From Novosphingobium sp. BL-A-41-H4 (GTDB taxonomy: Bacteria > Pseudomonadota > Alphaproteobacteria > Sphingomonadales > Sphingomonadaceae), in contig JBPVJP010000001.1 of NCBI GenBank assembly GCA_051942645.1, positions 1,054,812-1,118,811 on the forward strand: a stretch of 64,000 nucleotides of DNA, written 5' to 3'. Shown one piece after another: positions 13,628 to 61,704 of the stretch. Numbering within the stretch: position 1 is the first letter of the stretch; every line of letters begins with the position of its first letter. Position numbers and translations under genes: made by a program. The notes beneath the pieces were generated by a model. It saw only the letters and a list, made by a program, of their open reading frames with translations. It ran no database searches and had not been told where the DNA came from.

Positions 13628-13634
13628 CCGCGCA

Positions 13635-45062: not shown

Positions 45063-45905
45063 TCAGGCCGCAAGTGCCTGTCCGGATTGGCGATAAAGCG
45101 CACAATCGGACGCAGCGGCAACGAAGCCGGTAGCCCGGTCCAGCGTCCCTTCGCCCCCGCCCAGCAACAGTCGGCCATGCGGTGCCAGCGCCGCGTGCAG
45201 CCGCGCACAGGCAGCCCGCTTGGCCGTATCGTCAAAGTACAGCAACAGGTTGCGGCACAGGATCAGGTCGAACGCCGGGCCGGGCACGGGGCTTTCCAGC
45301 AGGTTACCCACTTCATAACGGATCATGCCCAGCAACTGACGCGATGCCTGCCAGCCATCGTCCTGTTCACTGAAGTGGCGCAGCATCTGCCCCACGCTCA
45401 GCCCGCGCTGGATTTCGAACCTCGAGTAAAGCCCGCGCCGCGCAGCCTCGATCGCGCCGCGCGAAACGTCGGTGGCGACCAGTTCGACGGTCCAGCCATT
45501 GCTTGCGGTGATGCCCTGTTCGATCAGCATGATCGCCAGCGACAAGGCCTCCTGCCCGGTGGAACAACCAGCCGACCAGATCCGCAGATGACGCGTTTCA
45601 GCCCGGGCGCGGCACAGCGCGGGTACGACAGCGCTGGCCAGTTGGCCGAATACCTGGCGATCGCGGAAGAAATAGGTCTCGTTGTTGAGCAACGCCTCGA
45701 CCAGTTCGTCCTCGACCGCCGCCGCATCGGGCTGGGTCAGCAGGGTCAGGATATCGCCGCTGCGGACAATCCCGCGGCGGCGCAGCACCGCCTCGATCGC
45801 ACGGTCGATCCGCCAGCGGCGGTCTTCGCTGATCACCTGGCCGGTGCGTTCGCGCAGCAGACGGGCGATCAGGCCGATGGCATGCTGTTGAAGCGACCGT
45901 TCCAT
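45063..45905 (-). CDS. cheR: chemotaxis protein methyltransferase CheR
   Basis: NETYFFRD, LRIWSAGCSTGQEALSLAI, DLILCRNLLLYF. ATG 45905; the 45906-46181 portion of the ORF is spurious. Confidence 0.93.
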   Translation of the reverse strand: MERSLQQHAIGLIARLLRERTGQVISEDRRWRIDRAIEAVLRRRGIVRSGDILTLLTQPDAAAVEDELVEALLNNETYFFRDRQVFGQLASAVVPALCRARAETRHLRIWSAGCSTGQEALSLAIMLIEQGITASNGWTVELVATDVSRGAIEAARRGLYSRFEIQRGLSVGQMLRHFSEQDDGWQASRQLLGMIRYEVGNLLESPVPGPAFDLILCRNLLLYFDDTAKRAACARLHAALAPHGRLLLGGGEGTLDRATGFVAAASDCALYRQSGQALAA

Positions 45906-45910
45906 CACGC

Positions 45911-47005
45911 TCACACCGGCCGGGCACAGGCGGCCACGCGCGCCGCAATGTCGCGGGGGTGGAGCACGGCGGCGGCCAGGCCAGCCCGCGCGATCGAACC
46001 GGGCATGCCCCAGACGGCCGAGCTGACTTCGTTCTGGACCAGGATGTTGCCACCCGCCGCGACCACGGCGCGGGCACCCTCGGTCCCGTCGCGGCCCATG
46101 CCGGTCAGCACCACGCCCAGCACGTTGGGTCCATAGACCTCTGCCAGCGAAGCGAACATCGGGTCGACCGCGGGCATGCACCCCGTTTCCGACGGGCTGC
46201 GATCGAGCCGGATCATGATCCGCTGGTCAATCCGCTTGACCGTGACATGGGCATCGCCCGGAGCAAGGTGGATCTGCTCGGGCAGCAATTCCATCCCGTC
46301 CTCGGCAATCGCCACCTCGCGGCCCGAAAACTCGCGCAGCTGATTGGCATAGGGCCGGGTAAACTCGGCCGGAAGGTGCTGGGTAATGATGATCGGCATA
46401 CCCAGAACCGGCGGCAGCGCGCCGAGCAACTGGCCGGTGGCGTGGATCCCGCCGGTCGAGGCGCCGATGGCCAGCACTTCCGGTCGAACCCCGGTAAGGG
46501 CCCGACGGGGCGGTGCAGCCATCACCGGCGCGGTGCCGGGGCGGCGCAACGGGCGGCGGCCCAGGCCCTTGATCCGCTCGATCAGGCGCTCGCGATAGCC
46601 CTGGTCAAACCCGCCCAGCCCCGGCTTGCGGAGCGCATCGGCCGCTCCCAGCGCCAGCGCCTGAACGGTATGCTCGGCCCCTTCCGCCGTCAGCGTGGAC
46701 ACCACCATGACCCGCGCCGAACCGGATCGCCGGATGATTTCCGGCAGCGCCCGCATTCCGCCCATGCCGGGCATTTCCAGATCGAGCAGGATCACGTGGA
46801 CATGCAGGCTGCCCAGCTGCGCCAGGGCATCTTCGGCAGTCGTGGCGGTTCCGGCCAGTTCAAGTCCCGGTTCGCTCTCGACCAGCCGGGAAAAGGCCGA
46901 GCGGACGAGGGCGGAATCATCGACAATGAAGACACGGATCGACCCGGCCAGAGGACCGACCGAGCCGCCCCCGCCTGGATCGAACCGGGCCGTCTGAAAG
47001 GTCAC
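45911..47005 (-). CDS. cheB: protein-glutamate methylesterase CheB (REC + methylesterase)
   Basis: REC (IRVFIVDDSALVR...LLDLEMPGMGG). Esterase (IGASTGG, ...GMGRDG...). GTG 47005 overlaps the cheY stop (GTGA). Confidence 0.9.
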   Translation of the reverse strand: MTFQTARFDPGGGGSVGPLAGSIRVFIVDDSALVRSAFSRLVESEPGLELAGTATTAEDALAQLGSLHVHVILLDLEMPGMGGMRALPEIIRRSGSARVMVVSTLTAEGAEHTVQALALGAADALRKPGLGGFDQGYRERLIERIKGLGRRPLRRPGTAPVMAAPPRRALTGVRPEVLAIGASTGGIHATGQLLGALPPVLGMPIIITQHLPAEFTRPYANQLREFSGREVAIAEDGMELLPEQIHLAPGDAHVTVKRIDQRIMIRLDRSPSETGCMPAVDPMFASLAEVYGPNVLGVVLTGMGRDGTEGARAVVAAGGNILVQNEVSSAVWGMPGSIARAGLAAAVLHPRDIAARVAACARPV

Positions 47006-47424
47006 GCCATGATCCCGATCAGTTGCAGCTTCAGCAGCAGGGTTTCGTGATCGAATGGCTTCATCACATATTCGTCGGCCCCGGCGGTAATGGCCTCGCG
47101 GATATGGTTGGCATCGTATTCGGTCGTGCAGAACACCACCTTGGGTGCCGCGCCATCGGGTCGGGCCCGCAGCGCGCGCAGAAAGGCAATGCCGTCCATG
47201 ACCGGCATGTTCCAATCGAGCAGGATCAGGTCGGGCATGGCCGCATCGCAGGCGGAGAGGGCCTGCTGCCCATCCTCCGCCTCGAGCGCGGTCATCCCGA
47301 GGCTCTCGACGATATGGCGCGAGATGCGCCGGATCACTCGCGAATCCTCGACGATCAGGCAGGTAAGGGCGCTTTCGCCCGCGCCGAGCGGGGCTCCCTC
47401 GATCGCTCCGGTTGCTGCGTTCAT
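47002..47424 (-). CDS. cheY: CheY-like single-domain response regulator
   Basis: LIVEDSRVIRR...DLILLDWNMPVMDG...VVFCTTE...KPF. Confidence 0.9.
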   Translation of the reverse strand: MNAATGAIEGAPLGAGESALTCLIVEDSRVIRRISRHIVESLGMTALEAEDGQQALSACDAAMPDLILLDWNMPVMDGIAFLRALRARPDGAAPKVVFCTTEYDANHIREAITAGADEYVMKPFDHETLLLKLQLIGIMA

Positions 47425-47427
47425 GGG

Positions 47428-47862
47428 TCAGGCTGCCTTCTGCTGGGGTTCGATCCCGACGAGCCTGGTCAGATCGACCAGCATGACGGTGCCGACGGCT
47501 GTATCTATCATTCCGACCGCGCTGCGCGCCCAGCCGGGGGAAAGCTTCATCTTGACGGGCTGGACCTCGCCCTCGCCCGGCAGCACATGCTCCACGGCAT
47601 CGACCGCAAGCGCATAACCCACCCCGTCGATCTCCACGACCACGGCAAAGCGCGCCGGATGGGGCCGGGTCGGCAGGTCGAGCGCCAGCGCAACGTCGAT
47701 CACCGTCAGCGTGCGGCTGCGCTGGGTAGCCAGGCCGGCGATGATCCCCGGCGCGCGCGGCACCGGCACGATCGCGCCAAGCTCGATCACCGACTGGACC
47801 TCGACCGCCGCCATGGCGATCCGCTCCCCGGCAACGCGGGCAATCAGCAGGTCATTGTTCAT
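47428..47862 (-). CDS. cheW: chemotaxis coupling protein CheW
   Basis: 144 aa CheW-like fold (LLIARVAGERIAMAAVEVQSVIE...). Its start overlaps the cheA stop. Confidence 0.88.
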   Translation of the reverse strand: MNNDLLIARVAGERIAMAAVEVQSVIELGAIVPVPRAPGIIAGLATQRSRTLTVIDVALALDLPTRPHPARFAVVVEIDGVGYALAVDAVEHVLPGEGEVQPVKMKLSPGWARSAVGMIDTAVGTVMLVDLTRLVGIEPQQKAA

Positions 47863-49943
47863 GCGTACCTCCGCGCGCCGTCATCCGCCCCGATCAGCCC
47901 GCCGGCTCGCGCCAGCACCGCCAGGTCAAGCAGTTCGAGCGACCGGCCCTCGTGCAGCACCAGTTGCCGCCCAGCCTCGCCGGTCAACGTCGCCAGATCG
48001 ATGTCGGCCGTGTCGATTGCCCCGGCGGTGGCATAGGCCAATCGCGCGCCGGCCTGCGACAGGACCAGCACGTCGACACTCTCGCCAGCCAGCTCTCCAG
48101 CCAGACCGTGCAGCGGCACGATCGCCTCTTCGAACACGATATGCGGGAAGCCTCCGCCATGGGCGATTTCGTCCAGCGGCACGTCGATCAGCCGCTCGAC
48201 CGTGGCCATCGGCACCGCCCGGGCGATCCCATCCAGCCCGGCGAACAGGATCATTGCCGCCAGGTCGCGGGCCTCTTCATTCGCCTGGGCATCGGTCTGG
48301 ACAGCAGTGCGGGCTTGACGGTCGGTATTGAGGCCGCCGAGTTGCGAAACGCCGTGCAGATCCAGCATCAGCGCCGGCTGCCCATCGTTGAGCTGTGCCA
48401 CCCCGACATAAAGCCCGGTGGCGATGACCTGCGGCGCGACCGGGCGGATCACCAGGTCGCAGTGGTCGGCAATCCCGTCGACGCACAGCGCGAAGACCGA
48501 TCCGTCGATCATCTTGAGCATGACCAGCGTCTGCCGGTCGGGATCGGTTTCACCGGCAATGCCGAACAGGTCCGCCAGGCCGAGGCAGGGATAGAGCTCG
48601 CCGCGCACCCGCACGTGGCGCATCCCGCCGATCCGGTCCACCTCTACATCCCGGCCATTGCGGACGATCTCGCGCACGAACGAGCGCGGCACGGCAAAGA
48701 CCTGCCCTCCCGCCTCGACCGTGATCGAGGGCACGATCGACAGGGTCAGTGGAACGTCGAGCATGATCCGGCACCCTTCGCCGGGCGTGCTGAGGATCCG
48801 CAGCTTCCCGCCGATCCGCTCGATGCTGGCGCGCACGACATCCATGCCCACGCCGCGCCCCGAAATCGCGGTGACTTCGGCCGCGGTCGACAGCCCCGGT
48901 TCGCAGACCAGCATCAGGCGCTGGGCCGGATCGAGCCGCGCGGCATCCTCGGCCGAAATGACGCCGCGTTCGATCGCGCGGGCCACCACCTTGTCGCCAT
49001 CGATCCCGCGCCCGTCGTCAAGGATCGCGATGCGGATCTCGTTCCCGGTCTGGCGGGCCGACAGCATCAGCCGCCCGGCGGGACGCTTGCCCGCCGCGCG
49101 GCGCTCGGCCGGTGCCTCGATGCCATGATCGATCGCATTGCGGATAATGTGCAGCAGTGGATCGCGCAGCAGTTCGATCATCTCGCGGTCCAGTTCGACC
49201 TGCCCGCTCTCGATCTCCAGTTCCACGTCCTTGCCCAGTTCGACGGCCAGGTCGCGGATCATCCGCTGATAGCTGTCGAGCAGGGTGGCAATCGGCTGCA
49301 TGCGCACCCGCGCCATCGCCGTCTGCAATTCCGACAGCAGCGAGGAAAGGCGCCCGAAATTGGCCAGCAGCGCCGGATCACCGTCGCTTTGCCGCAACTG
49401 CCGCTCCAGTTCGTTGCGGACCAGGATCATGTCGGACACGCCGCTCATCACGCGGTCGACCAGGCTGGTCGGCAGGCGGACAGAACGGAAAGGGTCGCGC
49501 GCCTTCGCAGCCTTGGCAGGGGCGGCTTCGACTGCCGGGAGTACTTCCGGTTCAGGCAAAGGTGCGGCGGCCGCCGGGCGCGCCGCGCAAGCGGCAATCA
49601 AGGCGCTGTCGTCACCCTCGCTCAGTTGCCCCCCTTCGGCGAGCGTTTCGATCATCGCGCCGATGCGGTCGATCACGGCCAGCACGGCGTCGACCAGCGG
49701 GCGGTCGATCGCGCGCTGCCCGGCGCGGGCCTCGCCCAGTGCATCCTCGGCGGCGTGGGCCAGCGCTTCCAGCCGGGGCAGGTCAAAAAATCCGCAGTTG
49801 CCCTTGACCGTGTGGACGAAGCGGAAAATCTCGTCGAGCAGGGCGCGGTCCTCTGGCTCGCGCTCCCAGGCCACGAGTCCGCGTTCGAGCGCTTGCAGCA
49901 TCTCGCGCGATTCAGCGATGAATTCGGTAATGAGGTCGTCCAT
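47859..49943 (-). CDS. cheA: chemotaxis histidine kinase CheA with two C-terminal CheW-like domains
   Basis: HPt (FRFVHTVKGNCGFF), dimerisation domain, HATPase (DDGRGID, GRGVGMDVV), P5, then a second CheW-like segment (MILFAGLDGIARAVPMATVERLIDV...). ATG 49943. Confidence 0.93.
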   Translation of the reverse strand: MDDLITEFIAESREMLQALERGLVAWEREPEDRALLDEIFRFVHTVKGNCGFFDLPRLEALAHAAEDALGEARAGQRAIDRPLVDAVLAVIDRIGAMIETLAEGGQLSEGDDSALIAACAARPAAAAPLPEPEVLPAVEAAPAKAAKARDPFRSVRLPTSLVDRVMSGVSDMILVRNELERQLRQSDGDPALLANFGRLSSLLSELQTAMARVRMQPIATLLDSYQRMIRDLAVELGKDVELEIESGQVELDREMIELLRDPLLHIIRNAIDHGIEAPAERRAAGKRPAGRLMLSARQTGNEIRIAILDDGRGIDGDKVVARAIERGVISAEDAARLDPAQRLMLVCEPGLSTAAEVTAISGRGVGMDVVRASIERIGGKLRILSTPGEGCRIMLDVPLTLSIVPSITVEAGGQVFAVPRSFVREIVRNGRDVEVDRIGGMRHVRVRGELYPCLGLADLFGIAGETDPDRQTLVMLKMIDGSVFALCVDGIADHCDLVIRPVAPQVIATGLYVGVAQLNDGQPALMLDLHGVSQLGGLNTDRQARTAVQTDAQANEEARDLAAMILFAGLDGIARAVPMATVERLIDVPLDEIAHGGGFPHIVFEEAIVPLHGLAGELAGESVDVLVLSQAGARLAYATAGAIDTADIDLATLTGEAGRQLVLHEGRSLELLDLAVLARAGGLIGADDGARRYA

Positions 49944-50094
49944 CGGCGGCAGTCTCCACCGCTGGCTATGGACGAATATCGTTAATCGGGGGTTATGGAC
50001 CGGGTGGCAATGCCATGGTTTCGCCAGGCTGCCTTGACCAGCTGTTAACCATTGCCCGTTAGCCAAAACGCCAGACCAAGTCTGGGGCAATTGC

Positions 50095-51498
50095 ATGTAT
50101 CTAGAGAAGATTCCCGCCGGAGTGCCGCTGCTCGACCAGTCGGCCGCAACGCACTGCGGCGACCTGGCGGTGGGCTGCACCGAGGCGGCCGGCCAGATCG
50201 AACGCGCGACCGAGGCGATGCAGCGCCAGATCGGTGACCTGGCCGAACTGGACGAGATCGCCGGCGCGCTCGAACTGGACCAGCGCCAGATCGCCGAATC
50301 CGCCGACGAGGCCCGGCTGCTCTCCGCCCAGGCCTATGACCGGCTCGACAAGGGGACCGAGCGGGTCCACGACGCGGTGGTCGAATTCCGCGCGATTATC
50401 GGCCTGATTTCGCGCCTTGGCCTGCACGTGACCAATTTCGCCACGGTGATGGAACAGGTCCAGCAGGTGTCCAAGGGGATCGAACAGATCGCCCGCACCA
50501 CCAACATGCTGGCGCTCAATGCCACGATCGAGGCCGCCCGCGCGGGCGAGGCCGGCAAGACCTTTGCCGTGGTTGCCTCGGAAGTGAAGAAACTGGCCCA
50601 GAATTCCAGCGCCGCGGCCGAGGAAATCCGCCAGGCGGTGGGCAAGCTGGCCGGAGAGGCGGCCGGCCTCGTGACCGAGATCCAGTCCGGCGTGGAACAG
50701 TCGAGCCAGGCCGAAGAGCGGCTGGAAACCGTTACCGACGTGCTGGCGGAAACCACGCGGCTGGTCTCGCAGCTCGATGAAACCGGGGCCAAGGTGGCCC
50801 AGGCCAGCGCCGAGGTCCACGCCAAGGGCCTGGCCGTGCGCGGCGCGCTCGATACCGTGATCGGCTCGGTGCGGCAGAACGCCGTGCTGCTCGATGCCAC
50901 GCGCGGCAACGTGCTCGACATGGAATCGACCTCGAACAAGCTGTTCAACGCCGTGATCAGCGCCGGGGTATCCCCGCGCGATACCGAGATCGTCGAGCTG
51001 GCCGCCCAGGCCCGCAACGAACTCGTCACGCTGGTCGAGGACGCGGTCGAACGCGGCGAGCTGCGGCTCGACCAGATGTTCGACACCAATTACCGACTGG
51101 TTCCCGGCACCAACCCGGAGCTCTACCGCACCCAGTTCAGCGACTGGGCCGATGCCAACTGGCGGCCGCTGTTCGATCGCCTGCGCACCAGCCATCCCAA
51201 CGTGATCATGTGCAGCGCGGCCGACATGAACGGCTTCCTGCCCACCCACGTGACGGAGCATTCGCGCAAGCCGATTGGCGACCTGGCCCACGACACGAAG
51301 TACTGCCGCAACGGCCGGATCATGCTGGGGGGAGCCGACCACCTGGCCAAGGCCAGCGATGCACCGTTCTTCATGTCGGTCTATCGCCAGGAAGGTGACG
51401 GCACCAATTACCTTGTGGTCCGCAACGTCTATACCCCGGTGATCGTCCAGGGTCGGCGTTGGGGCGACTTCGAAGTGGCTTACCAGATCCGGGGCTAA
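50095..51498 (+). CDS. soluble MCP-like protein: N-terminal MA signalling domain, C-terminal ~180-aa sensor-like domain
   Basis: No TM segment. [37 protein letters not shown] at residues ~130-170. The C-terminal region ([28 protein letters not shown]...[11 protein letters not shown]) could not be assigned to a family by eye. Confidence 0.85.
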
Positions 51499-51508
51499 AG
51501 GCCCCGGA
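51488..51508. other. 8-bp hairpin between convergent genes, with the MCP stop codon in its loop
   Basis: TCCGGGGC-TAAAG-GCCCCGGA. No clear U-tract on either strand. Confidence 0.35.
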
Positions 51509-51518: not shown

Positions 51519-52625
51519 CTAGCCCGCGATCGGGCCGTGCTTGATCTGCGGCAGCACGTAACGCGCGAACATGTCGCATTCGTTGACGTGCGGGTAGCCG
51601 GACAGGATGAAGGCTTCCATGCCCGCTTCCTGATAGGCGCGCAGCTTGGCGATCACCTGGTCGGGCGTGCCGACGATAGCCGCGCCGCAGCCTGAGCGGG
51701 CGCGGCCGATGCCGGTCCACAGGTTCTCTTCCACGAAGCCGTCGCCATCGGCGGCGCTGCGCAGTTCCTGCTGGCGCTGGACGCCATAGTTCTGCGCGTC
51801 GAGGCTCTTTTCTCGGATCGCGCGGCCCATTTCGTCATCCAGCTTGGACAGCAGCCGGTCGGCATAGAGCCGGGCTTCGTCCTCGGTCTCGCGCACGATC
51901 ACGTGGGCGCGGTAGCCGAACTTGAGCGTGCGGCCCTTGGCGGCGGCGCGGGCCTTCATGTCGGCCACGACTTCGCGCACGTTCTCCATCTTGTCCGGCC
52001 ACATCAGGTAGACGTCAGCCGCTTCGGCGGCGCATTCGCGCGCTTCGTGGCTGAGGCCGCCGAAGTAGAGGTTCGGGCACTTGCCCGACAGGGTGGTGAT
52101 CCGCGCCGGATCGAGCTTGAGGTTATAGAACTCACCCTGGAAATCGAGATGCTCGCCATTGAGCAGCGTGCGGATGATCTTCATCACTTCGGTGCCCCGG
52201 CGGTAACGCGGGCCGCTTTCCAGCGTCTCGCCCGGCATGGGTGAGGAGATGATGTTGACGTTGAGGCGGCCACCCGTCCCGGCGGCATTGGGGCCCAGGA
52301 TCCGGTCCAGCGTGGCGATGCGGCGGGCCAGCTGCGGCGGCCAGTCCTCGCCCATGCGGGTGGCCCAGAGCAGCTTGATCCGCCGGACCTGGGTGGCCAC
52401 GGCCGCGGCGAAGGCGGTGGTATCGAGGCCCAGCTCATAGCCCGAAGGCAGCAGGATATTGTCAAACCCGCCCTCTTCGGCGCGCAGCACGATATTGCGG
52501 CAATGCTCCCAGCTGGACTTCAGGTAGGGATCGGGAACGCCCAGGAACTCGTAATCGTCATCGCACAGGGCGGAAAACCAGGCGATCTCGCAGTCCATGC
52601 CGGGCTTCAGTTCTTGGGCGGTCAT
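51519..52625 (-). CDS. LLM-class flavin-dependent monooxygenase, SsuD (alkanesulfonate monooxygenase) family; candidate sulfoquinovose monooxygenase
   Basis: SsuD-like throughout: IAWFSAL..DDYEFLG, NLYFGGLSHEA, DVYLMW, FGYRAHVIVRETEDEA, ENLWTGIGRARSG, IVGTPDQV, FILSGYPH. ATG 52625; the upstream part of the ORF is spurious. Confidence 0.8.
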   Translation of the reverse strand: MTAQELKPGMDCEIAWFSALCDDDYEFLGVPDPYLKSSWEHCRNIVLRAEEGGFDNILLPSGYELGLDTTAFAAAVATQVRRIKLLWATRMGEDWPPQLARRIATLDRILGPNAAGTGGRLNVNIISSPMPGETLESGPRYRRGTEVMKIIRTLLNGEHLDFQGEFYNLKLDPARITTLSGKCPNLYFGGLSHEARECAAEAADVYLMWPDKMENVREVVADMKARAAAKGRTLKFGYRAHVIVRETEDEARLYADRLLSKLDDEMGRAIREKSLDAQNYGVQRQQELRSAADGDGFVEENLWTGIGRARSGCGAAIVGTPDQVIAKLRAYQEAGMEAFILSGYPHVNECDMFARYVLPQIKHGPIAG

Positions 52626-52647
52626 TGCAGCATCCTCTGTCTTCGTC

Positions 52648-52764
52648 GTCCCGGACCTGATCCGGGACCGGTGGCCGGTTGTTCTGGCCATGCTTGTCCA
52701 GGCCAGCGATCCCGGCCTGCGCCGGGATGACGGGGGAGGCACTAGGCCGACAGCGCCCCTCCCG
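52648..52764 (-). repeat. Array of four GC-rich REP-like hairpins between the AKR and LLM genes
   Basis: GTCCCGGA-CCTGA-TCCGGGAC (52648-52668). CTGGCC...GGCCAG (52684-52706). ATCCCGGC-CTGC-GCCGGGAT (52709-52728). CGGGGGAGGC...GCCCCTCCCG (52731-52764; 1 mismatch, 1 GU). From memory, the GTCATCCCGGCGCAGGCCGGGAT type is a common dispersed proteobacterial palindrome. Confidence 0.55.
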
Positions 52765-52776
52765 CCTTGATTCAGA

Positions 52777-53691
52777 TCAGGGCAGCGGCACGCCCCGCGC
52801 CGCGACGAGCACAGCGTACCAGTCGGTCCGGGTCCAGCGGACCTGCAGCGCGGCCATGCCCTCGGCAATCCGCTCCGCCTGCTGCGAGCCGATGATCGGC
52901 ACGATCCCGGCCGGGTGGGCCATCAGCCACGAATAGGCCGCGACCGAGCGCGAGACGCCCTGCTCGCCCGCCACCTTGTCCAGCGCGGCGCAGATCGCGT
53001 GATCGCGCGCGCTTTCTGGCTTGGCGAGACGCCCGCCGCCCAGCGGCGACCAGGCCAGCGGGGTCAGTCCCAGCATCATCGCCTGGTCAAGCTCGCCGTT
53101 CTCGAAACAGTCGATCCGCAGCGGGCTGATCTCGGGCTGGGTGGAGACCAGCTTGTGGCCGAGGAACTGGTTGAGCGCGGCGGTCTGGTGGATTGTAAAG
53201 TTGGAGACGCCGAGCGTGCGGATCTTGCCTGCGGTCACGGCATCGTCGAGCACCCGGGCCACTTCCTGCGGGTGGGCCAGGATGTCCGGGCGGTGGACCT
53301 GCCACAGCTCCACCGTATCCGTCTTGAGCCGGGTCAGCGAGGCGTCGATCGCCTTGCGCAGATAGTCGGCGCTCTGGTCATAGGGCAGCGGCGGCATGAT
53401 CCCGCCCTTGGTGGCCAGCACCATCCGCCCGCGCAGGCCAGGCTCGGCGGCGAGCACTTCGCCCAGCAGCGCCTCGGCATCGCCGAAGCCGCCGGAACCG
53501 TTAAAGCCATAGATGTCCGCCGTGTCGAGGAAGTTGATCCCGGCATCGAGCGCGGCGTGGACCAGCCGCGCGGCATCGGCGGCAGTCCGGCCATTTTCGG
53601 CCAGGCGCCACATGCCCCAGGCGATCGGGGAGACCTGAATGCCGCTGGCGCCAAGCTGGCGAGTGGCAGGGGGAGAAGGCAGCTGGCTCAT
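52777..53691 (-). CDS. aldo/keto reductase; candidate 6-oxo-glucose reductase
   Basis: AKR pattern: GINFLDTADIYG, LATKGG, and a C-terminal IPIIGS (NADPH-binding region). ATG overlaps the LacI-gene stop (ATGA). Confidence 0.85.
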   Translation of the reverse strand: MSQLPSPPATRQLGASGIQVSPIAWGMWRLAENGRTAADAARLVHAALDAGINFLDTADIYGFNGSGGFGDAEALLGEVLAAEPGLRGRMVLATKGGIMPPLPYDQSADYLRKAIDASLTRLKTDTVELWQVHRPDILAHPQEVARVLDDAVTAGKIRTLGVSNFTIHQTAALNQFLGHKLVSTQPEISPLRIDCFENGELDQAMMLGLTPLAWSPLGGGRLAKPESARDHAICAALDKVAGEQGVSRSVAAYSWLMAHPAGIVPIIGSQQAERIAEGMAALQVRWTRTDWYAVLVAARGVPLP

Positions 53692-54701
53692 GATGGTTTC
53701 CTGTATGGCGGCGCGACCGAGGCGCGTTCGATGAGTTGGTGGGGCAATCGGCGGTGCGTGATGTCACCCCCGGCGATGAGGATTTCGGCAGCCGTACGGG
53801 CAAGCTCGGCCATCGGCTGGTGAATGGTGGTCAGCGGCGGCCAGACGGTGCGGGCCAGCGTGGTATCGTCGAACCCGGCAACCGAGAGCTGCGCCGGGAC
53901 CGGAATGCCGCGATCATGCGCCACAGCCAGCACCCCGGCGGCCATGTCGTCGTTCGAGGCAAAGATCGCGGTGGGCGGCTCGGGCAAGTCGAGCAGGCGG
54001 TCCGCACCGCGCACGCCGGAATCGAAATCGAACTCGCCCTCGCAGACCAGCACGGGTTCATAGGCAATCCCCACCCGGTCGAGCGCGCGGCGATAGCCGG
54101 CCAGCCGGTCTTCCGAGCCCTTGTGATTGGGATGCCCCTTGATGAAGCCGATCCGGCGGTGTCCGGCGTTGATCAGGTGCGTGGTCAGGTCATCCGCGGC
54201 CTGGGCATCGTCCATGAAGACCGAACTGGTCAGGGCATGGTTGGTGCCGGGCGAGATGCGGACGAAGGGGATGTCCATCGATTCGAGCGCGCGCAGCACC
54301 GGCTCGCAATCGGTCACCGGGCTCGACAGGATGATCCCGTCGACGTGGGTTTCGGTAACAAGGCCGCGGACCTGTTCGCCCACCATCGGATCGGCCACGT
54401 CGACCGGCTGGGCCAGCAGGCGGATGCCGTTTTCGCGGCAGAAATCCCAGCACCCGGTCTGAATCTGGAACATGTAGTAGGGGCTGTGATTGTCGTAGAT
54501 CAGGGCGACCTGGTTGCTCTTTGCGCCCGACAGAATGCGCGCGGCGACCGAGGGACGGAAGTCGAGCGCCTTCATCGCCTCTTCCACCCGTGCCTTGGTA
54601 TCGGCCGAGACATAAGGATGGCCGTTCAGCACGCGGCTGACGGTCTTCACCGCCACCCCGGCCCGTGCGGCCACATCCCGGATGTTCGACCGTTCACTCA
54701 C
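53688..54701 (-). CDS. LacI family transcriptional regulator
   Basis: N-terminal HTH: NIRDVAARAGVAVKTVSRVLNGHPYVSADTKARVEEAM. Periplasmic-binding-protein-like core. GTG start overlaps the GH31 stop (GTGA). Confidence 0.92.
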   Translation of the reverse strand: MSERSNIRDVAARAGVAVKTVSRVLNGHPYVSADTKARVEEAMKALDFRPSVAARILSGAKSNQVALIYDNHSPYYMFQIQTGCWDFCRENGIRLLAQPVDVADPMVGEQVRGLVTETHVDGIILSSPVTDCEPVLRALESMDIPFVRISPGTNHALTSSVFMDDAQAADDLTTHLINAGHRRIGFIKGHPNHKGSEDRLAGYRRALDRVGIAYEPVLVCEGEFDFDSGVRGADRLLDLPEPPTAIFASNDDMAAGVLAVAHDRGIPVPAQLSVAGFDDTTLARTVWPPLTTIHQPMAELARTAAEILIAGGDITHRRLPHQLIERASVAPPYRKPS

Positions 54702-56695
54702 AGCGACTTCAGCCCCGCGAACAGATCGGCAAAGGCGCTGTCCGGGCGGTAGAATACCGGCGGCGTACCGATTGGCGCTGCGACGGTATGAGTACCCGGA
54801 GCGGATGTCTCACCCGTGAAGGCATGGAGCCACTCGCCCTCGCCCGGCAGGATCACCTCGCGCGTCGTGGCCCCTTCCTCGATCACCGGGGCCACCAGCA
54901 GGTCCGCGCCATAGAGGTACTGGTCCTGCACCGCGAAAAGCGCGGAGTCGTCGGGATGGTGCAGGAACAGCGGGCGCTGCGCGGGCAGGCCGAATTCCAG
55001 CGCCTCGTCGCACAGGTGGCGGACATAGGGCGCCAGGTGCTTGTGCACCCGGCTCCACCGGGCGAAACAGGCCAGCAGTTCGGGCGTGCTGTCATACTGC
55101 AGGTTATCGTCCGGGCGATTGCCCTCGTGGCTGCGCATGACCGGCGCGAAGGCGGCCAGTTCGCACCAGCGCTCCATCAGCTCCACGGTGCGCACATTGC
55201 CGAGGATCGAGGTATAGCCGCCGCAATCGGCATGGCTGTAGGCATTGCCGACGAGGCCTGCCGAAAGCGCCGCGGTGATCACCGTGCCGATCCCGTCATG
55301 GCGGGTGAAATCGACCGACTGGTCCCCTGCCCACAGCAAGGGGCAATGGGCCTGCACGCCCGAGAACCCGGCGCGCATGAAGAACACGGCATCGCCGGTC
55401 TTGCCCCGGCTCTCGACCGCCTGGGCATTGACCTCGGCCCACAGCACCGGCCAGCGGTTGTGCGCTTCCATCGGGTCCGAGCCGTCGGCCAGCTGCACAT
55501 CGGTCGGCAGGTACTCACCGAAGTCGGCCATCCAGCCGGAAATGCCGATATCCAGCATCTCGCGCCCTAGCACCTTTTCGGCAAACCAGTCGCGCGTCTT
55601 GACCTGGGTGAAGTCCAGCACCCCGCAGTCGAACTCGCCGAAATCGACCAGGTAAACCTCGTCGCTGTCCTGCTTGCGGCAGAAGTGCCCGCTTTCCAGC
55701 GCTTCCTCGTAGAGGATACCGTCGTTGCAGAGATAGGGGTTGGCATAGGCCAGGAAGCGGATGCCGCGCGCCTCCAGCGCCGCGATCCGCTGTGGCAGGT
55801 CGGGAAAGCGCTGGTTGTCGCGCCGCCAGTCCCAGAACAGGCGGCGGCCGAAGCTGGTTTCGCGAATGCCCGCCCAGTCCTCGCACCAAAGGCCCGAGAT
55901 GGCGGCCCCGGCCTTGATGAAGTCGTCCAGCCGCTCAAAACTGCGCGCGCCGTCCTTCAGGCCGACGATTGCCCCGCCGATCGCCCAATCGGGCAGGGGC
56001 GGCTGGCGGCCGAAGCGGGTGGACAGCTGCCCGACCAGGTCCAGCGGACCATCGGCGGTGAACAGTTCGAACGCAGCCTCGCCCTTCCACACCTCGAAGG
56101 CATGGACCGAAGGGTAGCTGCAATCGATCACGCTGTAACAGGCCGCGTCGAGATGGATCGCCAGCCAGCGCGAAGTGATGAGTGTCGGTTGTGGGTAGTT
56201 GGTGTGATAGTAGTCACCCCCTGCCATGCCATCGCGGTCCATCGCTTGTGTCAGTGCAGTGGTCTTGTCGCGGCCTACGCCGGGCTCGCTGGTCCACATG
56301 GGGAAGCGGCGGCCATTGAGGGCCAGATAGCTCATCTGTTCGCCCCCGCCCCAGGCCGCTTCGCCCGGTTCGGCATGCCAGTGCAGGGTGATCCGGTCAT
56401 GGCCGGGGCGCAGCAGGACGACGGACAACCGATTGTCCTCCAGCGCGAGTCGCGCGACCGGCGCACCATCTGCGGAGAGCGTCGCGCAGTCGGCCGAAAC
56501 GGCGCATTCGAGCGGAACCAGCGCATTTTCAGGCGCGTCATCAATGTGGAAGTTGCCGCGGTACATCTTTACCGAAGCATTGCCCCGCGCGCTGGTCAGA
56601 ACCGGCGCGTCACTGCGATGGCGCAGCATCAGGCGCCCCGCGAAATGCAGGTCAAACCCACCATCTACCGCCGAAAATCCGGCCTCCACGCGCAT
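54698..56695 (-). CDS. GH31 glycoside hydrolase, YihQ-like; candidate sulfoquinovosidase
   Basis: SFGRRLFWDW (R-x-x-W), GWMADFGEYLPTD (nucleophile Asp), FFMRAG...LLWAGDQSVDF (acid/base region), HADCGGYTS, C-terminal APIGTPPVFYR. ATG 56695 has GGAAGG 8 nt upstream; the alternative is GTG 56758. Confidence 0.8.
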   Translation of the reverse strand: MRVEAGFSAVDGGFDLHFAGRLMLRHRSDAPVLTSARGNASVKMYRGNFHIDDAPENALVPLECAVSADCATLSADGAPVARLALEDNRLSVVLLRPGHDRITLHWHAEPGEAAWGGGEQMSYLALNGRRFPMWTSEPGVGRDKTTALTQAMDRDGMAGGDYYHTNYPQPTLITSRWLAIHLDAACYSVIDCSYPSVHAFEVWKGEAAFELFTADGPLDLVGQLSTRFGRQPPLPDWAIGGAIVGLKDGARSFERLDDFIKAGAAISGLWCEDWAGIRETSFGRRLFWDWRRDNQRFPDLPQRIAALEARGIRFLAYANPYLCNDGILYEEALESGHFCRKQDSDEVYLVDFGEFDCGVLDFTQVKTRDWFAEKVLGREMLDIGISGWMADFGEYLPTDVQLADGSDPMEAHNRWPVLWAEVNAQAVESRGKTGDAVFFMRAGFSGVQAHCPLLWAGDQSVDFTRHDGIGTVITAALSAGLVGNAYSHADCGGYTSILGNVRTVELMERWCELAAFAPVMRSHEGNRPDDNLQYDSTPELLACFARWSRVHKHLAPYVRHLCDEALEFGLPAQRPLFLHHPDDSALFAVQDQYLYGADLLVAPVIEEGATTREVILPGEGEWLHAFTGETSAPGTHTVAAPIGTPPVFYRPDSAFADLFAGLKSL

Positions 56696-56877
56696 TTCCC
56701 CAACCTTCCCGAGCGGCTGTTGCGCCAAAGCCACAAGCGCCGCAAACCCGTATGACACCGCTTGACATATCGAGCGCTTCCCCGCAATTCAAGCACCAAG
56801 CGGAAGGGTGCACCCCGTCCGCCAGAGGAGAATTCGCCGCGGGGCAGGAGGCCCCCGGTACAAGGGAGGACACATCC

Positions 56878-59265
56878 ATGAAGTCGATGCTCCGCGCCTC
56901 GTCGGCCCTGCCCCTGGCAGCGCTGGCCATGGTTGCTTTTGCCGCTCCGGCCTATGCCCAGGACGCGGCTGATGATGAGAATAACCCCGGCGAAATCGTC
57001 GTAACCGCCCAGAAGCGCGCTGAAAACGTCCAGGACGTGCCGGTTGCCGTGTCTGTCCTGTCGGGCGAACGCTTGGCCGATGCCTCGCGTCCGAGCATTG
57101 AAAGCGCCAGCCAGATGGTGCCTTCGCTCAACTTCCTGAAGTCGGGCACCACGCTGAACCAGACGATCTTCCTGCGCGGCGTCGGCACCGCGACCTTCTC
57201 GATCGCGGGCGAACCCTCGGTCTCGACCGTGGTCGACGGCGTGGTCTACTCGCGCTCGGGCGAAGCCTTCTCCGACATGGTCGACGTGGCCCAGATCGAA
57301 GTGCTGCGCGGCCCCCAGGGCACGCTGTTCGGCAAGAACGCCTCGGCCGGCGTGATCAACATCACCACCCAGATGCCGAAGATGGAATTCGGCGGCTCGG
57401 TTGAAGCCAGCTATTTCGATCGGAACGAGTATCGCCTGAAGGGCGCGGTCAACCTGCCGCTGGGCCAGGACCTGGCCGCCCGTTTCACCGCCTTCTACGG
57501 CGAGTATGACGGCAACATTCGTAACGTCACCACCAACGAATGGGTCAACGGCTACAAGCACTGGGGCGTGCGCGGCCAGTTCCTCTACGAACCGAGCGAC
57601 GACCTGCGGCTCTATCTGGCCGCCGACTATTACAAGAACGATGACGATTGCTGCGCCGACATCATCGGCACCGGGCCGCTGACCGGCACCGGCCTGCCGA
57701 GCACGAGCCTGGGCTTCCTTGCCCTGCCCAGCCCGGATGGTGCCAACACCCGCGCCGTCGCCCAGAACCTCGTCACCGCGACCAAGGAAGAAGGCTGGGG
57801 CGTCTCGTTCCAGGGCGATTTCGGCCTTGGCGATCACACCATCACCAGCATCACCGCCTATCGCGGCTGGGACAACACCGAAATCCGCGATGGCGACTGG
57901 CTTGACCGGGCCTACGTCGGCTTCGCCCAGCTCCACGATACCGGGCCGCAGACCTCGACCACGTTCACCCAGGAACTGCGCCTGACCTCGCCCGCCGATC
58001 AGACGCTGTCCTATGTGCTGGGCGCGTTCTACTCGCGCGCGGAATCGGAGCGGACCTTCACCCGCAATGTGACCCAGTGCACCGCCGCAGCCGGTGCGCC
58101 GACCACAGTGCTGGTGCCCTGCGGCAGCGCCTTTGCAAACCCGGCGACCACGCCCTCGGGCTCGGCGACCTTTGGTTCGACCTTCAACAACTTCGCCTTG
58201 TTCGGCCAGGCCACCTACAAGTTCTCGGATTCGATCCGGTTCGTGGCCGGGCTGCGCTACACGCATGACAAGCTGTCGGTATTCCACCGCCGCGTTTCGC
58301 CGCTCACCGGTCCGGGCATCCAGCCGAACTTCGACCAGGGCGTGTACAACGAGTACATCCGCCTGATCGGCCTCGGCACCGCGCCGGGCACCGCCGCGAC
58401 GGCAGCAGCCGCCTTGTCGAACGGGGTTCCGTGGACCAGCGAGACCAGCAACGACAACGTGTCGGGCAAGGCAACGCTGCAGTTCGACCTGAACGACGAC
58501 AGCATGGCCTATGCCAGCTATGCTCGCGGCTACAAGGGCCCGGCCTACAACGTCTTCTTCAACCTCACCGGCACGGGCACCAACGTGATCGAGCCGGAAA
58601 CCTCGGACTCGTTCGAGATCGGTCTGAAGAACACGCTGCTTGACGGCCGCCTGACGTTCAACATCGCGGCCTACTATGCCAAGTACAAGAACTTCCAGGC
58701 CAACAATCCGGACCTGGTGGCCGGCGTGGTAGTCACCCGCTTCACCAATGCCGGCACGATCTCGACCAAGGGCATCGAAATCGACATGAACTGGCGCATT
58801 GGCTCGACCACGAACCTCAGTGCCGGTGTTTCGATCAATGATGCCAAGGTCGTGAACTTCAACGCCCCGCTCGGCACCACGGCGGTGATCCCCGCTGGCA
58901 CCAAGCTTGGCTATGCACCGACCTGGAAGGGTTCCATGGCGCTCGATCACACGATCGAGACGGGCGGCTTTGCCAACATTGCCTTCGGAGCCTCGATGAA
59001 CTTCCAGTCGAAGCAGCTCTCGCTGTTCGCGGCTGACCCGGTGCAGCGCCAGTTCGGCACGATCCCGGCCTATGCCCTTGTCAACGCTCAGGTCGGCATC
59101 GTCGATCCGGACGACAAGTGGAAGCTCACCTTCGTGGTCCGCAACCTGTTCGACAAGGCCTATGCCGCGGCGATCGTAAATGGCGGCGTGGGTGGCTCCT
59201 ATCGCTACCAGATTCCGCGCGATGCGGATCGTTACTGGGGCGTGACCGGCCGGTTCAGCTTCTGA
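56878..59265 (+). CDS. TonB-dependent receptor
   Basis: Signal peptide ...AFAAPAYAQD. TonB box/plug (EIVVTAQKRAENVQDVPVAVSVL). 22-strand barrel region. C-terminal aromatic residue (GRFSF). GGGAGGA SD before ATG 56878. Confidence 0.93.
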   Translation: MKSMLRASSALPLAALAMVAFAAPAYAQDAADDENNPGEIVVTAQKRAENVQDVPVAVSVLSGERLADASRPSIESASQMVPSLNFLKSGTTLNQTIFLRGVGTATFSIAGEPSVSTVVDGVVYSRSGEAFSDMVDVAQIEVLRGPQGTLFGKNASAGVINITTQMPKMEFGGSVEASYFDRNEYRLKGAVNLPLGQDLAARFTAFYGEYDGNIRNVTTNEWVNGYKHWGVRGQFLYEPSDDLRLYLAADYYKNDDDCCADIIGTGPLTGTGLPSTSLGFLALPSPDGANTRAVAQNLVTATKEEGWGVSFQGDFGLGDHTITSITAYRGWDNTEIRDGDWLDRAYVGFAQLHDTGPQTSTTFTQELRLTSPADQTLSYVLGAFYSRAESERTFTRNVTQCTAAAGAPTTVLVPCGSAFANPATTPSGSATFGSTFNNFALFGQATYKFSDSIRFVAGLRYTHDKLSVFHRRVSPLTGPGIQPNFDQGVYNEYIRLIGLGTAPGTAATAAAALSNGVPWTSETSNDNVSGKATLQFDLNDDSMAYASYARGYKGPAYNVFFNLTGTGTNVIEPETSDSFEIGLKNTLLDGRLTFNIAAYYAKYKNFQANNPDLVAGVVVTRFTNAGTISTKGIEIDMNWRIGSTTNLSAGVSINDAKVVNFNAPLGTTAVIPAGTKLGYAPTWKGSMALDHTIETGGFANIAFGASMNFQSKQLSLFAADPVQRQFGTIPAYALVNAQVGIVDPDDKWKLTFVVRNLFDKAYAAAIVNGGVGGSYRYQIPRDADRYWGVTGRFSF

Positions 59266-59292
59266 TCCGGATGGTTTCGACCTGACCAGATT

Positions 59293-59328
59293 GGGGCCTT
59301 CGTCTGCGGACGGAGGCCCCATTTGTTT
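59293..59328 (+). terminator. Rho-independent terminator after the TonB-dependent receptor gene
   Basis: GGGGCCTTCGTC-TGCG-GACGGAGGCCCC (12-bp stem including one GU), followed by ATTTGTTTC. Confidence 0.75.
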
Positions 59329-59345
59329 CAAGCCGCGATGGGGAG

Positions 59346-60587
59346 ATGGCGCGGGTGCAGAAAATCAACAGCCGGCTCAGCTGGACCTTGTTCCTCCTGC
59401 TCTGCGTGGCGGGCGTGTTCAACGCGATGGATCGCCCGATCATCGCGATCCTGAAGCCCGACATGTCGGCCGATTTCGGTTGGACCGATGCCGATTTCGG
59501 CCAGCTGGCTTTCATCACCCAGATGGCTGCGGCCATCTCATTCCTGTTCACCGGTTGGCTGGTCGACAAGCTTGGGGTCTGGCGGTCGATGATCGCGGGG
59601 GTTTCGACCTGGAGCCTCGCCGCCATTGCCCATGGCTGGGCGGTAAGCGCGTGGCACGTGGTGGCCGCTCGCATTGGCCTGGGCGCGACCGAGGCCGTTC
59701 AGACCCCGCTGACGATCAAGACTGTCGCAACCCTGTTCCCGGCCAATCAGCGCAGTTTTGCCTTTGGCGTGGGGACGGCAATCGCCGGGCTGGGCACGTT
59801 GTCGTTGCCGTTCTTCATCCCGATCATCGCTGCCGCCTTTGGCTGGCGCGGCGCTCTGATCTTTGGCGGGGTGGCCGGATTCATCACCCTTGCGTTGTGG
59901 CTGTGGTTTGCCCGGCGCGTTACCTTTGACGATGGCGCCGAAGACGACAACCAGGACTATTCCGACGATGGCGCGCCTTATGGCCCGATCCTGGCCGACC
60001 GACGGACCTGGGCCATTGTTATCGCCAAGGCACTGTCCGATGCCACCTGGTGGCTGATCAATTTCTGGCTGCCCGATTTTTACCGCAAGACCTATGGCCT
60101 CACTACCGAGGAACTGGCCGTACCGCTGGCGATCGCCTTCCTCGGTTCAGGCAGCGGGGCGCTGCTCGCTGGCTGGATCTCCACCCACCTGCTGGAAAAG
60201 GGCTGGAGCCCCAATCGCGTGCGCAAGTCCGTGATGCTCTGTTCGGCTTTGGTCGTGCTGCCCCTGCCGCTGGTACTGCAACTCAACTCGTTCTGGCCCG
60301 TGGCGGTCATGATGGGCGTGGTCATGGCCGGCCACCAGGGCTTCTCGCTTTCGATCTTCTCAACCATTACCGACGTGGTGCCGCGCACCAAGGTTGGCCG
60401 CGTCACCGCTTTCGGTGCCTTCATGGGCAACATGGGCGGGGCATTGATCCAGCTGGTGACCGGTGCGGTGCTGACCGCCGGCCTTGGCTTTACTCCGCTG
60501 TTCATCTTTGCCGCCGTGTCATATCTGCTGGCGCTGGGCTGGCTGCACCTGTTGCTGCCGCTGATCCGCCGCCCCAACGAAGTCTGA
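59346..60587 (+). CDS. MFS transporter, ACS/hexuronate-type (anionic sugar importer family)
   Basis: 12-TM pattern. N-terminal NAMDRPIIAILKPDM motif, typical of ExuT/ACS-like MFS. Alternative GTG start at 59355. Confidence 0.82.
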   Translation: MARVQKINSRLSWTLFLLLCVAGVFNAMDRPIIAILKPDMSADFGWTDADFGQLAFITQMAAAISFLFTGWLVDKLGVWRSMIAGVSTWSLAAIAHGWAVSAWHVVAARIGLGATEAVQTPLTIKTVATLFPANQRSFAFGVGTAIAGLGTLSLPFFIPIIAAAFGWRGALIFGGVAGFITLALWLWFARRVTFDDGAEDDNQDYSDDGAPYGPILADRRTWAIVIAKALSDATWWLINFWLPDFYRKTYGLTTEELAVPLAIAFLGSGSGALLAGWISTHLLEKGWSPNRVRKSVMLCSALVVLPLPLVLQLNSFWPVAVMMGVVMAGHQGFSLSIFSTITDVVPRTKVGRVTAFGAFMGNMGGALIQLVTGAVLTAGLGFTPLFIFAAVSYLLALGWLHLLLPLIRRPNEV

Positions 60588-60600
60588 TCCCGCCACTCCG

Positions 60601-61704
60601 ATGAACCAGAGCGAACCCCGCAAGCCTGTCTCGACAATCGACTGGGACGCCCTGCCCCACGGCGGAGACCTGTTCGGCGAGATGCACCTGGCCGAACAGG
60701 CTGCCCAGGCCGACCGGCCGAAGGACAGCCTGTTCCCCGGGCTGGCCATTTGCGGCGTAGCCGCAGCGGCAGCGGCATGGTTGTCGGAGCATTACGGCTT
60801 TCCGATCATCCTGTTGGGCCTGCTTATCGGGCTGTCCTTGAACTTCATTGCCCGCGATGCCCGGACCCATCCGGGTCTGGACTTTGCCTCGCGCACCTGT
60901 CTGCGGGTGGGGATCGTGATCCTGGGGTTGCAGGTAACGGTCGGGCAGATCACCGCCCTCGGCGCCGCGCCGTTCCTCGCGCTGCTGGTGGTAATGGCCA
61001 CCACGTTCTTCGCCGGAATAGCCGGGGCGCGGCTGGTGACGCAGTCACGCTATGCCGGGATGCTGGCCGGTGGCTCGACCGCGATCTGCGGAGCGAGCGC
61101 TGCGCTGGCACTTTATGGCGTGATCGGCAAGGAACGGCTAAGCCAGGCACAATTCGCACTGACCCTCGTCGGTGTTAGCCTCGCCAGCGCCTTCGCCATG
61201 TCGGTCTATCCCGCGCTGGCCTCCGAACTGCACCTGACCGATCGCCAGGCCGGCTTCCTGATCGGGGCTTCTATCCACGATGTCGCCCAGGCGATCGGCG
61301 GCGGCTATGCCTTCTCCGACGCAGCCGGATCCTATGCCACGATCGTCAAGCTGGCCCGCGTTGCGCTGCTGGCACCGGTAGTGGTGCTGGTCAGCCTGAT
61401 GCTGCGCGACCGGACCGGCGCCTCTGCGGCCCAGCCGCTGTGGAAGCGCTTGTCGCTGCCCTGGTTCATCACCGCCTTCCTCGCGACCGTGGTGCTCAAC
61501 AGCCTGATCACCGTGCCTGAGCCAGTCAGCCACTATGCCCTGGTCGGATCCAAGGGCCTGCTGCTGCTGGCAGTCACCGCCACCGCCATGCGCAGCCGGA
61601 TGGATCTGCTCCTCGACATGGGTTGGCGCGCTACCATCCCGGTCGTGACAGCCACCCTCGCCAGCTTCCTCACCGCTCTGGGCTTTGCGGTGCTGCTGCT
61701 CTGA
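60601..61704 (+). CDS. YeiH/UPF0324 family membrane protein (PSE family, putative sulfate exporter)
   Basis: Polytopic, with a YeiH-like pattern (FPGLAICGVAAAAAAWLSE, ICGASAALA, IHDVAQAIGGGY, KLARVALLAPVV). The N-terminal ~27 aa may be an over-extension. Confidence 0.7.
   Translation: MNQSEPRKPVSTIDWDALPHGGDLFGEMHLAEQAAQADRPKDSLFPGLAICGVAAAAAAWLSEHYGFPIILLGLLIGLSLNFIARDARTHPGLDFASRTCLRVGIVILGLQVTVGQITALGAAPFLALLVVMATTFFAGIAGARLVTQSRYAGMLAGGSTAICGASAALALYGVIGKERLSQAQFALTLVGVSLASAFAMSVYPALASELHLTDRQAGFLIGASIHDVAQAIGGGYAFSDAAGSYATIVKLARVALLAPVVVLVSLMLRDRTGASAAQPLWKRLSLPWFITAFLATVVLNSLITVPEPVSHYALVGSKGLLLLAVTATAMRSRMDLLLDMGWRATIPVVTATLASFLTALGFAVLLL

Follow-up and report, generated by a model that had tools for sequence, protein, structure and literature searches.

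Which compound is broken down by an operon that sets a GH31 glycosidase, a LacI-family repressor, an aldo-keto reductase (AKR) and a luciferase-like monooxygenase (LLM) head to tail, and is such an arrangement new? The four open reading frames (ORFs) in question lie on the minus strand at 51.5-56.7 kb of a 64-kb stretch of contig JBPVJP010000001.1 from Novosphingobium sp. BL-A-41-H4, the whole of which is referred to here as the window. An earlier note, made from the letters of the sequence, took them for a variant of the oxidative route by which the plant sulfosugar sulfoquinovose (SQ) is desulfonated. The chemistry it proposed is borne out, in that SmoI, SmoC and SmoB of Agrobacterium tumefaciens are the closest solved enzymes and their active-site residues are largely kept, and the locus very probably encodes the sphingomonad form of the sulfoquinovose monooxygenase pathway (sulfo-SMO, also sulfo-ASMO). 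Most likely, freshwater Novosphingobium and other sphingomonads use this gene set to desulfonate SQ and consume the glucose. The claim of a variant architecture did not hold: the layout is of the known Novosphingobium type, and both a reductase-less cluster and non-ABC transporters are already on record.

The pathway was defined in A. tumefaciens by Sharma et al. 2022 (PMC8795539), who already noted rearranged or non-syntenic smo clusters, some of them with non-ABC transporters. As outlined in the relevant passages of two reviews (PMC9594981, PMC12890257), Liu et al. 2021 characterised sulfo-ASMO, with the proteins SquD, SquF and YihQ, in N. aromaticivorans DSM 12444, whose cluster lacks SsuE, other cellular reductases being the presumed source of reduced flavin mononucleotide (FMNH2). 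As those passages describe it, this system shares with the window its genus, its three enzyme types and the lack of an SsuE-type reductase. Because the N. aromaticivorans pathway is characterised and its cluster is likewise without a flavin reductase, the window is not a new variant. The enzymology is already known and the window is one more example of it; what the comparison adds is a seven-gene core across sphingomonad genera, together with candidate importers, a candidate sulfite/sulfate exporter and a precise candidate operator; only the predicted genes for uptake and export offer a new lead. In a 2026 isotope-probing study, Novosphingobium was labelled by 13C-SQ at mangrove and estuary stations, and the genomes of close relatives were predicted to be sulfo-SMO-positive, a score given on SmoB and SmoC alone.

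The enzymes of the operon

The ORF listing and Pfam agree on the family of each of the four proteins and on one minus-strand block in the order GH31, LacI, AKR, LLM, just as the earlier note had it. The overlaps it described were read directly: the GTG start of the LacI gene overlaps the GH31 stop (GTGA) and the ATG of the AKR gene overlaps the LacI stop (ATGA), which embeds the repressor in mid-operon. All the peptides that it quoted (SFGRRLFWDW, GWMADFGEYLPTD, LLWAGDQSVDF, HADCGGYTS, NLYFGG, HVIVRETEDEA, LWTGIG and ILSGYPH) are present in the translations. An operon scan returned zero terminators and a single weak promoter-like site. The window has a G+C content of approximately 65% and, to go by its ribosomal-protein operon, its chemotaxis cluster and its housekeeping genes, is chromosomal core DNA.

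The GH31 ORF is open up to 56758, with M22 at 56695 as the likely start, and the product encoded from there carries the Pfam domains PF01055 and PF21365. It scores 860 bits against PRK10426, the YihQ equivalog of NCBIfam (cutoff 553), and stays below the cutoffs of the models for the YicI alpha-xylosidase (185 bits, cutoff 606) and MalA (119 bits, cutoff 800). The protein is YihQ-type, as had been proposed, and the YicI/xylosidase identity is ruled out by its score. The top matches in the PDB are structures of A. tumefaciens SmoI (5OHY, 5OHS and 7OFX, 817 bits), behind which come further enzymes of YihQ type and then, at 145 bits or less, generic GH31 enzymes; identity to SmoI is 55% across 661 residues. 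In SmoI, Arg283, Trp286 and Tyr491 form the sulfonate triad, and Arg438 and Glu135 contact the glycerol (PMC8795539). With the published residue numbering of Sharma et al. 2022 (PMC8795539) checked against that of the PDB chains, the triad is kept in the window protein (FGRRLFWDW against FGARLFWDW, and GGYTS in both), as are the equivalents of Arg438 and Glu135. Both catalytic aspartates are kept as well, one in GWMADFGE and the other, in GDQSVDF, equivalent to the acid/base Asp455 of SmoI, which was recognised because 5OHY and 5OHS differ by D455N. The Arg/Trp/Tyr pocket and the Asp pair that the earlier note had pointed to all align with their SmoI equivalents, and we predict that the enzyme hydrolyses sulfoquinovosyl glycerol (SQ-glycerol) to SQ and glycerol.

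The LLM ORF spans 51519..52868, and translation likely begins at the ATG at 52625, preceded by the ribosome-binding site AGAGGA. Its top NCBIfam matches are SsuD models, and residues 14-359 align to Escherichia coli SsuD, the end-to-end likeness reported before; its 238 bits nevertheless fall far short of the 518 demanded by the SsuD equivalog. Among solved enzymes, the SmoC sulfoquinovose monooxygenase structures of Sharma et al. (PMC8795539) score 371 bits (7OH2) and 361 bits (7OLF), against 197 for MsuD, 182 for E. coli SsuD and 105 for SfnG. NtaA-type and F420-type enzymes reach at most 42 bits, which rules out an identity of either type and bears out the earlier reading. A MAFFT alignment gives approximately 50-54% identity with SmoC, against 32-33% with SsuD and MsuD, and a neighbour-joining tree places the sphingomonad LLM clade as sister to SmoC, well away from SsuD and MsuD. 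The alignment with 7OLF shows that Tyr136, Ser189, Trp206, Arg236, His238, Tyr341 and His343 of RoSmoC are all kept. The SmoC-type motifs WFSALCDDDY and LWTGIGRARSGCGAA occur in the window protein and not in SsuD or MsuD, where the SsuD-type counterparts are WFLPTHGDGHY and LWAGVGLVRGG. The known sulfur-scavenging systems, E. coli SsuD/SsuE and Pseudomonas MsuD, have a luciferase-like TIM-barrel with the same FMN-phosphate and sulfonate residues as the window protein, whereas the genetic context here, one operon shared with the genes for the sulfoquinovosidase and the predicted 6-oxo-glucose reductase, is that of carbon catabolism rather than sulfur starvation. The predicted reaction is the conversion of SQ to sulfite and 6-oxo-glucose with FMNH2 and O2.

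The AKR finds SmoB as its top PDB match (7BBZ/7BBY, 181 bits, 38% identity), followed by E. coli YdhF at 138 bits. Its catalytic tetrad is complete, with equivalents of SmoB Asp71, Tyr76, Lys104 and His151. Among the residues assigned in SmoB, where Arg152 and Lys120 contact glucose and Trp232 stacks on the nicotinamide (PMC8795539), the equivalents of Arg152 and Trp232 are kept. At the site for the NADPH 2'-phosphate and adenine, Arg289 is kept, Thr284 is replaced by Ser and Asn285, a backbone contact, by Gln. We predict that this enzyme reduces 6-oxo-glucose in the manner of SmoB and SquF; it is the weakest of the three enzyme assignments and owes most of its support to the conserved setting in the operon.

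Set against the smoABCDEFGHI cluster of A. tumefaciens C58, the window contains orthologues of SmoI, SmoC and SmoB at 55%, approximately 50-54% and 38% identity, respectively. It lacks both the SmoA flavin reductase and the SmoEFGH ABC importer with its solute-binding protein, and has instead genes for a TonB-dependent receptor, a transporter of the MFS family and a YeiH-family membrane protein. Its regulator is of the LacI family and lies inside the operon, and its AKR is without the loop that bears Lys120. The positions of all these features are given in Table 1.

Table 1. Features of the predicted sulfoquinovose locus and the genes divergent from it, in window coordinates.
Feature	Position	Strand	Basis
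GH31 sulfoquinovosidase (YihQ/SmoI orthologue)	54698..56695	minus	Pfam, NCBIfam PRK10426, SmoI alignment
LacI-family repressor inside operon	53688..54701	minus	Pfam LacI HTH + Peripla_BP_3
AKR, predicted 6-oxo-glucose (6-dehydroglucose) reductase, SmoB/SquF type	52777..53691	minus	Pfam Aldo_ket_red
AKR-LLM spacer, 3-4 GC-rich hairpins, REP-like palindromes	52626..52776	minus	folding
LLM, predicted FMNH2/O2-dependent sulfoquinovose monooxygenase, SmoC/SquD type	51519..52625	minus	Pfam Bac_luciferase
Candidate LacI operator ATGTCAAGCGGTGTCA	56753..56768	no strand	alignment of 70 intergenic regions
TonB-dependent outer-membrane receptor	56878..59265	plus	Pfam Plug + TonB_dep_Rec_b-barrel
MFS_1 transporter, anion:cation symporter-like	59346..60587	plus	Pfam MFS_1, sub-cutoff TIGR00893
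YeiH/PF03601-family membrane protein, putative sulfate exporter family	60601..61704	plus	Pfam Cons_hypoth698, sub-cutoff TIGR00698

Divergent transporter genes and a candidate operator

A Pfam search of ORFs picked by third-position G+C (GC3), covering the window outside the 18.7-37 kb ribosomal-protein block, found no ABC transporter or solute-binding gene. The earlier note was correct on this point, but it overlooked the three adjoining plus-strand genes at 56878..61704 that diverge from the GH31 gene and encode the TonB receptor, the MFS transporter and the YeiH protein. A signal peptide can be seen in the receptor, and its gene has the ribosome-binding site GGGAGG. The top NCBIfam match of the MFS transporter is TIGR00893, of D-galactonate type, at 121 bits and below cutoff; the YeiH protein scores 175 bits against Pfam Cons_hypoth698 and 112 bits, again below cutoff, against TIGR00698, which NCBI names 'YeiH family putative sulfate export transporter'. 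We suggest that these genes likely provide the uptake and export functions of the locus.

A scan of species-representative genomes gave 269 LLM relatives, the best 80 of which (85-97% identity) were used for comparing loci. Nearly all of these 80 are labelled as sphingomonads, namely Novosphingobium, Erythrobacter, Porphyrobacter, Sphingorhabdus, Blastomonas and Altererythrobacter, a few records bearing other taxon names, and the closest are freshwater Novosphingobium metagenome-assembled genomes at 97% identity. Where the upstream flank is complete over 10 kb, as it is in 62 loci, the genes for LacI, the AKR, the TonB receptor and the MFS transporter are each present without exception (62/62), GH31 is present in 60 and YeiH in 51. 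Gene order is constant across these 62 loci, and so is orientation, except for that of the MFS gene, which matches the window in 44. The N. aromaticivorans genome is not among the 80 loci or the 120 proteins listed.

The shared upstream region of the two gene sets is itself conserved at one point. An alignment of 70 GH31/TonB-receptor intergenic regions contains a single conserved block, with a 15-nt core, TGTCAAGCGGTGTCA, that is invariant in all 70 loci containing the region while the flanking DNA diverges, and that is found once in the 64-kb window. The motif is operator-like, with the core TGTCA-N5-TGTCA and the imperfect palindrome ATGnCA-N5-TGnCAT, and it is overlapped by a plus-strand TTGACA hexamer. 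The LacI protein reaches no NCBIfam equivalog; we propose TGTCAAGCGGTGTCA as the operator of this embedded repressor. Weaker copies of the motif, ATGTCTCGCGGTGTCA and ATGTCTTGCGGTGTCA, occur in the region of the MFS gene in two relatives, at position 2158 of locus L043 and 1940 of locus L067. The first lies near the 3' end of an MFS gene on the TonB-receptor strand, the second just upstream of an alternative, oppositely oriented MFS gene (approximately 40% identity), and these copies may represent a second operator.

In the model that we propose, two divergent transcription units would surround one regulated promoter region. The TonB-dependent receptor would bring SQ-glycerol or SQ across the outer membrane and the anion-type MFS transporter would take it across the inner one, the GH31 sulfoquinovosidase would free SQ, the LLM would cleave its C-S bond with FMNH2 and O2 to yield sulfite and 6-oxo-glucose, and the AKR would reduce the latter to glucose with NAD(P)H, with sulfite or sulfate being exported by the YeiH-family protein. 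The co-encoded LacI repressor would probably control both units through the invariant TGTCA-N5-TGTCA site, and the reduced flavin would be supplied by a reductase encoded outside the window. We give the transport and operator roles as specified here about an even chance of being right, and would set no better and no worse prospects on the broader suggestion that the TonB/MFS/YeiH unit, co-controlled by LacI via TGTCAAGCGGTGTCA, is an uncharacterised route of freshwater sphingomonads for taking up SQ or SQ-glycerol and disposing of sulfite.

The candidate importers, exporter and operator bear on how freshwater bacteria acquire SQ substrates, a matter that a 2026 review calls 'largely unknown'. 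The SQ reviews and articles searched, all of them for TonB receptors and some for the other two proteins, do not describe the sphingomonad TonB receptor, MFS transporter and YeiH protein or the operator, although Liu et al. 2021 may show these genes, and the review passages on N. aromaticivorans mention none of these three proteins and no LacI operator. A precedent comes from the sulfoquinovose dioxygenase (sulfo-SDO) cluster of Alteromonas macleodii, which has, like the window, a TonB-dependent receptor and a predicted sulfate transporter, the receptor being approximately 107-fold more abundant in comparative SQ proteomics; this gammaproteobacterium cleaves the C-S bond by an Fe/2-oxoglutarate dioxygenase, whereas the window would do so by a flavin monooxygenase (PMC12780224).

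It could be that SQ desulfonation is real while the three neighbours are unrelated to it, serving siderophore uptake or that of some other sugar acid, with the SQ importer encoded elsewhere. Such a view draws on the variety of the neighbours: the TonB receptors encoded here in the relatives belong to widely differing sequence classes (40-90% identity), the MFS proteins are of two types and two orientations, and the NCBIfam scores of all three are below cutoff. Genuinely unrelated neighbours would, however, lose the pattern that is seen, in which receptor and MFS transporter stand in place in 62/62 loci from several genera, and the invariant operator-like motif in the shared promoter region and the Alteromonas precedent (PMC12780224) speak against the idea as well. 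We consider it improbable, and prefer to read the three genes as part of the SQ locus.

Points against the assignment, and the state of the operon

Several observations weigh against the SQ monooxygenase reading as a whole. Its AKR is only 38% identical to SmoB, a 9-residue loop that bears the glucose-contacting Lys120 of SmoB is deleted in it, and Phe241, from the NADPH 2'-phosphate/adenine site, is replaced by Ala. The residues kept in the LLM at the FMN-phosphate and sulfonate sites are also common to SsuD and MsuD and are therefore, taken alone, no proof of specificity for SQ. What speaks for the MFS and YeiH assignments is synteny together with NCBIfam matches below threshold, and the likeness to N. 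aromaticivorans SquD, SquF and YihQ is drawn from the descriptions in the review passages, not from sequence. Finally, a flavin reductase gene was not found in the window, as the earlier note had also stated: tblastn with a sphingomonad FMN reductase gave zero matches over the whole window, and the Pfam search, in the scope given above, gave zero as well. A linked reductase gene is nonetheless reported to be dispensable for membership in this type of cluster, because N. aromaticivorans is without one.

Linked flavin genes vary among relatives. An SsuE-like FMN reductase gene (PF03358) directly follows the LLM gene in 22 of the 80 loci (for example, at 12587..13162 of locus L062), and a gene for RibB, the DHBP synthase of riboflavin synthesis, lies downstream in eight (for example, at 13153..13761 of locus L050), which suggests local flavin provision for the monooxygenase. 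The window and its closest relatives form a subtype without the reductase gene.

Between the AKR and LLM genes lies a 151-nt spacer that folds into three or four GC-rich hairpins (-79.2 kcal/mol, z = -3.16). The description of the LLM gene as set apart by an array of repetitive extragenic palindromic (REP) elements stands in so far as the spacer is structured; the REP label is plausible and only partly verifiable, since two of the hairpin motifs recur elsewhere and none does so in the window. These two are found at unrelated sites, few in number, in other sphingomonad loci, a recurrence compatible with a dispersed REP-like family, and the 64-kb window holds zero further copies of the hairpins. 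No T-run terminator follows them. An Rfam scan of 51-62 kb for riboswitches and small RNAs, such as the FMN riboswitch, gave no match in the spacer, the two sub-threshold chance matches that it returned both lying outside. Over 80 relatives, between 11 and 188 nt separate the AKR stop from LLM residue 13; in the window the figure is 187 nt. Of the four hairpins, two are already different in a relative at 97% identity (locus L002), and the hairpins are probably a lineage-specific insertion gained by the window's lineage. In one relative (locus L018) the LLM start codon shares an ATGA with the AKR stop, so that all four genes were probably translationally coupled ancestrally.

One might ask whether this insertion has partly disabled the operon, with the hairpins uncoupling or terminating transcription between the AKR and LLM genes, no linked flavin reductase, and a pathway that functions poorly. 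The spacer is indeed strongly structured and at the long end of its range, an FMN reductase gene follows the LLM gene in 22 of the 80 relatives and not in this strain, and a split S46 peptidase gene, described below, is another probably damaged gene in the window. Yet there is no T-run behind the hairpins, the LLM ORF is intact, has a good AGAGGA site and encodes a protein 97% identical to its closest relatives, long spacers are found in many genera, and the characterised N. aromaticivorans cluster, as the review passages present it, likewise lacks a reductase; a disabled operon seems to us very unlikely. Least probable of all is an ssu-type LLM that scavenges sulfur from alkanesulfonates beside an ordinary alpha-glucoside operon with a plain alpha-glucosidase, a view that can point to SsuD models as the best NCBIfam matches of the LLM, to the annotation of its relatives as 'alkanesulfonate monooxygenase' and to the label 'alpha-glucosidase' for the GH31 protein in public records, but that runs into an LLM score of 238 against the SsuD cutoff of 518 bits and a SmoC score twice that of SsuD, a GH31 protein in which the sulfonate triad is intact and whose score clears the YihQ cutoff, the finding, in the searches described above, of neither an ssuABC transporter nor ssuE in the window, a LacI-type sugar repressor translationally coupled to the enzymes, and the occurrence of the four genes together in 60/62 genomes.

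Variation among relatives and neighbouring genes

Around its conserved core, the SQ cluster shows further exchange of genes. Approximately 10 relatives have added glpD and glpK downstream of the LLM gene, and the annotation of the N. pentaromativorans plasmid pLA3 runs TonB receptor, alpha-glucosidase, LacI, AKR, LLM, glpD and glpK; such additions are compatible with SQ-glycerol as the natural substrate and with use of its glycerol. Two Sphingorhabdus loci, L042 and L051, have no GH31 gene and carry at that point, flanked by the genes for the TonB receptor and LacI, one for a 369-aa oxidoreductase of the GFO/IDH/MocA family (6781..7890, minus strand, in L042), which may be an NAD-dependent, non-GH31 sulfoquinovosidase swapped into the cluster. 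With FMN reductase, RibB and glpD/glpK added and GFO/IDH/MocA exchanged for GH31, the module looks interchangeable among relatives.

A further LLM, 67-69% identical to that of the window and closer to it than Agrobacterium SmoC is, is encoded in locus L082 (1..13047), from plasmid pWSM4643_1 of Rhizobium sp. WSM4643. It adjoins genes for LacI, an ABC importer and proteins like those of the sulfo-Entner-Doudoroff (sulfo-ED) pathway (a short-chain dehydrogenase/reductase, a lactonase, an aldolase, a dehydratase and an alpha-glucosidase), with no adjacent AKR gene, and looks like a hybrid SQ locus. Similar matches occur on several other Rhizobium plasmids among the matches listed; N. aromaticivorans is not among the 25 plasmid matches listed.

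On the other side of the operon, a 467-aa methyl-accepting chemotaxis protein (50095..51498, plus strand) converges on the LLM gene across a 20-nt gap, with a shared hairpin at approximately 51489..51507. Its Pfam matches are to the signalling domain only, the C-terminal approximately 220 residues being without a match, and it stands beside the LLM gene only in the nearest relatives (L002, L005, L006, L012 and L025). Adjoining it is a che cluster (CheR, CheB, CheY, CheW and CheA) at 45063..50180.

Beyond the YeiH gene, an S46 dipeptidyl-peptidase gene (61801..63947, plus strand) is split into ORFs at 61801..63147 and 63144..63947, which overlap as ATGA and cover positions 1-424 and 427-697 of PF10459. 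The split is a frameshift, reflecting either a pseudogene or a sequencing error. Elsewhere in the window, at 11195..12772 and 12830..14594 (plus strand), and unrelated to the SQ locus, two alpha/beta-hydrolase genes come after one for a wax-ester synthase/diacylglycerol acyltransferase (WS/DGAT).

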